From: Escherichia coli
GTDB taxonomy: Bacteria > Pseudomonadota > Gammaproteobacteria > Enterobacterales > Enterobacteriaceae
Strand: one strand, 5' to 3'
Assembly (NCBI RefSeq): GCF_003334315.1
Contig: NZ_QOWR01000045.1
Length of the DNA stretch: 41,110 nucleotides
In this document: positions 40,827 through 41,110 of the stretch, piece by piece
Numbering within the stretch: position 1 is the first letter of the stretch
Layout: each line of letters begins with the position of its first letter
Position numbers and translations under genes: made by a program
The notes under the pieces: generated by a model
What the model was told of the DNA's origin: nothing
What the model saw: the letters and a program-made list of their open reading frames with translations, nothing else
Database searches by the model: none

Positions 40827-41110
40827 TTACGAAAGCCCGCTCCCCGCAAGGACTGACGCGAGATAGTTTCTGTCCATGGCTGCTTTTCGCATCTTACGTC
40901 TTAACCCTGCCTTGAATACCTTATCATTCGTTAAAATATTAATAGCGATGTGCCGTATCCCTGAAAATAATTCTGCGGCGTTTCCTCTTCTTATTTTGCA
41001 GTCGTCTTCATTCATTACCACGTCCAGACGCCAGTGCAGCTTATTCTCCACGTGCCAGTGGTTTCGGATTGCTGTGGCGAACTTCTCTGCGGTTAAATCA
41101 GCAGAACTGA
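40827..41110 (-). CDS. ISAs1-family (H-repeat-associated) transposase, 3' portion; 5' end beyond the window (yhhI-like)
   Basis: The minus-strand frame is open to the window edge and ends ...[50 protein letters not shown]...[20 protein letters not shown], which matches the conserved C-terminus of ISAs1/H-repeat transposases as I remember it. Confidence 0.6.

Follow-up and report, generated by a model that had tools for sequence, protein, structure and literature searches.

Results

The last gene of the window is the 3' part of yhhI

The DNA analysed here, hereafter the window, is a 41,110-nucleotide stretch of Escherichia coli sequence whose distal end carries two convergent genes. The first, yhhJ, occupies 39538-40662 on the plus strand and encodes an ABC transporter permease, as indicated by the list of open reading frames and by the annotation of identical genomes; beyond it conservation gives way to the variable segment that separates nikR from yhhJ. 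The second is read on the minus strand, from 41108 down to 40830, as 93 codons that remain open to the window edge, followed by a TAA stop codon at 40829-40827. Translation of all three minus-strand frames showed the other two to be full of stops. The program-made ORF list omits reading frames that run off the source and therefore gives only an inner part of 74 amino acids. An earlier interpretation of this DNA (the sequence-only reading) had placed a transposase fragment at 40827-41110 and had quoted an H-repeat transposase motif from its C terminus. The coordinates proved right, the strand, which had been left unstated, is minus, and the motif is present letter for letter in the translation of 41108-40830. 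From this translation, the protein families that it matches and the annotation in genomes that are 100% identical, we assign 40827-41110 (minus strand) to the 3' portion of the ISEc1 transposase gene, yhhI; the segment comprises the last 93 codons and the stop, and the gene continues past the window end.

The 93-residue fragment alone matches the NCBIfam equivalog model NF033564 (ISAs1 family transposase) with a score of 82 bits (E=4.2e-23) against a curated cutoff of 70 bits, and covers the last 59 positions of the profile (256-314 of 314). The same fragment contains the C-terminal end of the Pfam domain DDE_Tnp_1 (model positions 146-200 of 200, E=5e-7). Membership of the ISAs1 family, proposed earlier from the motif, is upheld by homology, far beyond chance. 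The N-terminal three quarters of YhhI lie outside the window and their domain order is taken from E. coli K-12, in which the full-length orthologue displays the architecture of a DDE-type transposase, DDE_Tnp_1_assoc (PF13808, E=1.9e-33) preceding DDE_Tnp_1 (PF01609, E=1.7e-29). As in DDE_Tnp_1 transposases generally, the third catalytic residue is probably a glutamate, here that of the HWHVEN motif encoded in the window. A search of PDB sequences with full-length YhhI returned only chance matches to CheY (E of 1 or more) and no solved relative.

The window ends within ISEc1

Many complete E. coli chromosomes are 100% identical to the final 711 bp of the window, and in them the genes are annotated as yhhJ and yhhI, the latter as an ISAs1-like element ISEc1 family transposase; identity to K-12 strains over the same interval is 98.3%. 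A contiguous junction of yhhJ with ISEc1 occurs in 1,826 of 5,426 complete genomes. Among the matches listed for the last 24 kb, none looks base-for-base identical to the window; the best single-piece match scored 44,492 bits, compared with about 44,525 estimated for exact identity. Z1323PEC0011, the closest single-piece match, is one base longer than the window over these 24 kb. What is said below of the completeness of the element, its Rhs neighbours and a nonsense codon in its gene was read from such close relatives, beyond position 41110.

Alignments to ISEc1 copies at other loci in other genomes begin at 40814-40817 of the window (query positions 415-418), and full copies in K-12 and three other genomes all end at 40817. 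These copies are 1,291 bp long, with the exception of one of 1,290 bp. The alignment limits and the full copies together assign 40817-41110 (minus strand) to ISEc1, as the last 294 bp of the 1,291-bp insertion sequence at the end downstream of the transposase gene. Each 1,291-bp element of the identical genomes and of K-12 contains one ORF of 1,137 bp; both the length and the ORF count were read from other genomes, the window itself holding 294 of the 1,291 bp (23%). Elements of the ISAs1 family are usually about 1.3 kb in length with one ORF and, judged from the identical genomes and K-12, the copy at the window end would conform to this pattern.

The same applies to the ends of the element. 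The terminal repeat in the window, CAGGGCAAGATTACGAAAG at 40817-40835, starts with CAGGG; the partner repeat is beyond the window. At the opposite terminus BE2-5 and K-12 read CAGGGAAAGATCATCAAAAG, which matches CAGGGCAAGATTACGAAAG at 14 of 19 positions, so that the element is bounded by 19-bp imperfect inverted repeats. ISAs1-family elements carry inverted repeats of 14-22 bp starting with CAGGG (PMC11946415), and the ISEc1 copy, with its partner repeat taken from identical genomes and K-12, agrees with this description.

We conclude, with a probability of about 0.95, that the final bases of the window belong to one end of ISEc1, on the outer border of the accessory RhsB element. ISEc1 is the 'H-repeat' of E. 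coli, named H-rptB in K-12, where its gene is yhhI (b3484). The sequence-only reading had also described the feature as a fragment. This description holds for the window, which cuts 284 bases into the gene, and fails for the element, which is a complete 1,291-bp ISEc1 in every near-identical genome inspected. It could be argued that the copy is biologically partial, a truly truncated relic of an ISAs1 element rather than the end of a complete one. Partial copies are known at this very site, ISEc1 being internally deleted in TUM14771 and RIVM_C037166, and the RhsC locus of K-12 holds partial tandem H-repeat copies. The internally deleted variant, however, departs from the window at 40864, whereas the window matches full-length copies to its last base, and the 1,291-bp element is present in all three genomes inspected that show 100% identity over the last 711 bp. 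A truncated relic is therefore very unlikely, and the window end is best viewed as part of a complete ISEc1. Beyond 41110 the element would run for a further 997 bp to ...CTTTCCCTG, followed by the yrhC remnant, yhhH, rhsB and nikR.

In BE2-5, Z1323PEC0011, FT130 and K-12 the element is flanked by ...GTCCTGTATT on one side and GCCGTTGACT... on the other, with no target-site duplication around it; none was found at the RhsE and RhsC copies of K-12 either. A 10-bp target duplication has been reported for ISAs1 elements (PMC11946415). It should be emphasized that the absence of a duplication bears on how this copy arrived or was later rearranged, and has no bearing on its family membership; simple transposition alone is not enough to account for what is seen today. 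The RhsB and RhsE (ydcC) copies of K-12 each cover positions 1-1291, and RhsC contains one full copy together with two partial ones in tandem. Transposition of the H-repeat has not been observed, according to the paper describing the E. coli W genome (PMC3032704).

A half REP and an IS1397 relic lie between yhhJ and ISEc1

The DNA between yhhJ and ISEc1 is itself composite. The REP-like element noted previously is real: the REP core motif GCCGGATAAGGCG, for which 0.04 matches would be expected by chance, lies at 40736-40748, and a strong hairpin occupies 40662-40716. The core motif is part of a half REP palindromic unit, TAGGCCGGATAAGGCGT at 40733-40749, recognized by motif search and by comparison with Nissle 1917, in which the palindrome at this site is whole (GGCCGGATAAGGCGTCACGCCGCATCCGGC); the window lacks the second half, and its homology with B2 strains such as Nissle 1917 stops at 40749, in the middle of the REP. 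The hairpin is an inverted repeat (plus strand) that directly follows the stop codon of yhhJ; it aligns both with a degenerate REP palindromic unit and with a canonical one downstream of cysM in HYM1. The intergenic DNA next to yhhJ is thus a BIME-like pair of REPs. The predicted RNA fold of 40655-40760 has a free energy of -34.8 kcal/mol (z=-3.56), and the hairpin may form the end of the yhhJ transcript. A simple promoter and terminator scan of 40500-41110 did not call the hairpin and returned nothing relevant; its one terminator-like site lay inside yhhJ, and shuffled sequence yielded as many. An Rfam search of the whole window identified no RNA family near the ISEc1 end. Elsewhere in the window, on the minus strand, there were gathering-level matches to GadY (1308-1421), ES205 (7200-7271), AgrB (18195-18278) and ES036 (CssrF; 27057-27097), the last adjoining a second exact copy of GCCGGATAAGGCG (27104-27116), the only one in the window apart from that at 40736-40748.

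Three bases, TTA at 40750-40752, separate the half REP from a 65-bp segment at 40753-40817 that begins with the terminal repeat TGAACTG and matches complete copies of IS1397, an IS3-family element, at 63 of 65 bases; base 40817 can be assigned to either IS1397 or ISEc1. The complete 1,432-bp copies used for comparison reside in REPs downstream of cysM (HYM1) and puuE (PEC011). Experiments have shown that IS1397 inserts into REP palindromic units (PMC1525189), and the position of its terminal sequence inside a REP unit identifies the 65-bp segment as an IS1397 relic. K-12 MG1655 carries the same relic at the identical site (8525-8589 of locus L002). In the genomes checked, K-12 included, the RhsB locus contained no further IS1397 sequence, and the RefSeq annotation tables inspected, including that of K-12 MG1655, contain no feature entry for the relic. 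The presumed ancestral state, a full IS1397 at the yhhJ REP, was sought in 5,426 complete genomes with a chimeric query consisting of window positions 40640-40752 and the first 220 bp of IS1397, and was found in none. The best matches to the chimera started at its positions 28-31, none starting at 1, and the one inspected (HYM1, downstream of cysM) belonged to a different REP pair. The sequence-only reading was therefore justified in seeing a mobile-element junction, which lies just downstream of yhhJ and is nested, comprising the half REP, the IS1397 relic and ISEc1.

The transposase gene is probably inactive in this lineage

In all three identical genomes inspected (BE2-5, Z1323PEC0011 and FT130) yhhI contains a stop at codon 60 and bears the RefSeq flag 'internal stop', while K-12 yhhI is intact and encodes 378 amino acids. 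Codon 60 lies outside the window; because the identical genomes carry the nonsense codon, the copy at the window end is probably a nonsense pseudogene and dead in this lineage. Comparison of K-12 yhhI, K-12 ydcC and BE2-5 yhhI gave dN/dS values of 0.10-0.19 and, in the 93 codons shared by the window and K-12, all nine differences are synonymous (P about 1e-6 under neutrality). Both observations indicate that YhhI was under selection until recently and that the transposase was functional in the past.

Such constraint could also be taken to mean that the host has domesticated the gene and put it to cellular use, perhaps in Rhs biology, in which case yhhI would no longer be the gene of a selfish or decaying insertion sequence. 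The recurrent association of H-repeats with Rhs elements and the failure to observe their transposition (PMC3032704) are in keeping with this view. Purifying selection, however, is also expected of any recently active insertion sequence; yhhI is a nonsense pseudogene in the very genomes that are identical to the window end; and the copies behave like those of an insertion sequence, having intact termini, varying in number and position between strains and occupying a median of 4 places per genome at different loci. We thus consider domestication highly improbable, and yhhI to be the gene of an insertion sequence that is now probably inactive at this site.

The 294 bp of ISEc1 in the window differ from the orthologous RhsB copy of K-12 at 9 positions and from the K-12 RhsC copy at 3; in the 417 bp that flank them there are about 3 differences from K-12 (about 0.7%). 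The greater similarity of the ISEc1 end to the RhsC copy of K-12 than to its orthologue suggests exchange (gene conversion) between H-repeat copies.

ISEc1 borders a variable segment between nikR and yhhJ

In BE2-5, Z1323PEC0011, FT130 and K-12 MG1655 the gene order is yhiL/yhiJ, yhiY, yhiI, rbbA and yhhJ, followed across the junction by yhhI, a HEAT-repeat remnant (yrhC), yhhH, rhsB and nikR. The flanking Rhs element anticipated by the earlier reading is therefore next to the insertion sequence, as rhsB-yhhH-yrhC, in K-12 and in genomes identical to the window end. In these four genomes ISEc1 occupies the position of the H-repeat of RhsB, downstream of the rhs core gene and of the immunity or orphan genes that accompany it, and we infer the same for the window.

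The nikR-yhhJ interval exists in at least four states among the strains compared. K-12 and, by its relatives, the window would have RhsB with ISEc1. TUM14771 and RIVM_C037166 contain a larger Rhs array with orphan tips, a sel1-repeat gene, an IS630 fragment and the internally deleted ISEc1. Nissle 1917 has a sugar island (PTS, aldolase and FGGY kinase) and the intact REP. In O157:H7 TW14359 hicAB accompanies a Nissle-type sugar island, and homology ends at the yhhJ stop codon. On these comparisons ISEc1 marks the edge of the variable segment.

The sequence-only reading had gone further, suggesting that the mobile-element junction might explain the island-like character of a yhhJ-rbbA-yhiI-yhiJ-yhiL block. 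The only compositionally island-like stretch, at about 31.2-35.4 kb, is yhiL/yhiJ, with a GC content of 0.33-0.39; it consists of two YhiJ/YhiL (DUF4049) paralogues. One of these genes, the yhiL-like gene, is annotated as frameshifted in Z1323PEC0011; a one-base indel between 17000 and about 36800 may sit there, in which event the window may carry the intact form. That ISEc1 brought in, or otherwise accounts for, the yhiJ/yhiL block is consistent with the joint presence of the two in the window and K-12-like strains and with their joint absence from Nissle 1917, where yhiM directly precedes yhiY. Separating them, however, are 5.4 kb of conserved yhiI-rbbA-yhhJ sequence with a GC content of 0.52-0.60, which is retained in strains that lack ISEc1, and the annotations examined show no ISEc1 end or other insertion sequence beside yhiL/yhiJ. 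Furthermore, in one strain, O157:H7 TW14359, yhiJ is kept and the hicAB-plus-PTS island replaces RhsB and ISEc1 at this site. As TW14359 has yhiJ without ISEc1 and Nissle 1917 has neither, the two polymorphisms are independent. The proposed causal connection is not supported, and we hold out almost no prospect that ISEc1 explains the block; what ISEc1 borders is the nikR-yhhJ segment.

Discussion

The feature at the window end is ordinary and already annotated. ISEc1 is a long-known 1.3-kb insertion sequence, yhhI is a textbook component of E. coli K-12 that RefSeq has annotated in thousands of genomes, and its recovery here matters little. 'The E. coli K-12 H-repeat element, yhhI' indeed serves as a reference sequence in the Salmonella O-antigen literature (PMC3715488). 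The useful results of this study are corrective: the apparent fragment results from the position of the window end, and ISEc1 marks the edge of the nikR-yhhJ segment and is not the cause of the yhiJ/yhiL block. The 65-bp IS1397 relic is the only detail that may be unrecorded, and amounts to a footnote on how the RhsB boundary was formed.

A possible history of this boundary can be read from its layers. IS1397 would first have entered the REP downstream of yhhJ. An ISEc1 terminus would then have been joined base-perfectly at position 64/65 of IS1397; the precise IS terminus at the boundary points to a joint made by the transposase, which is expected to bind the CAGGG-initiated terminal repeats and, by DDE chemistry, to cut the ends and join them. 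Either a later deletion or a cointegrate-type event would have taken place on the Rhs side, as indicated by the lack of a target duplication and the loss of the remainder of IS1397. For the Salmonella D2 O-antigen cluster, a comparable model mediated by the H-repeat has been put forward (PMC3715488). Today this copy of ISEc1 would act mainly as a dispersed repeat and as an edge marker of the variable nikR-yhhJ segment. That the three-layer junction of REP, IS1397 and ISEc1, which is apparently unannotated, sets the order of events at the edge of RhsB, with IS1397 arriving first and ISEc1 after it, is a tentative proposal that we regard as somewhat doubtful. If it is true, the nested junction, the dN/dS of 0.1-0.2 and the exchange between copies would argue that H-repeat transposases have been active in building Rhs elements, despite transposition never having been observed.

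The founder of the ISAs1 family is ISAs1 of Aeromonas salmonicida. In common with the family, ISEc1 has a single DDE transposase matching NF033564, a CAGGG terminal repeat and a comparable length (1,291 bp versus 1,316 bp in the member IS1548). In contrast to the family, this copy and the other K-12 copies examined lack the 10-bp target duplication, and the H-repeat has no recorded transposition. With respect to IS1397, only 65 of 1,432 bp are left, the rest of the element and the second half of the REP being gone; the relic nevertheless sits in the middle of a REP, as do the complete copies at cysM and puuE in other strains. The closest counterpart is the ISEc1/H-rptB of K-12. The window departs from it by 9 synonymous differences in 294 bp, and its identical relatives by the nonsense codon 60, yhhI of K-12 being intact (378 amino acids). 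The two share, however, the same locus, the same orientation (convergent with yhhJ), the same IS terminus, the 65-bp IS1397 relic and 93 identical residues of the transposase.
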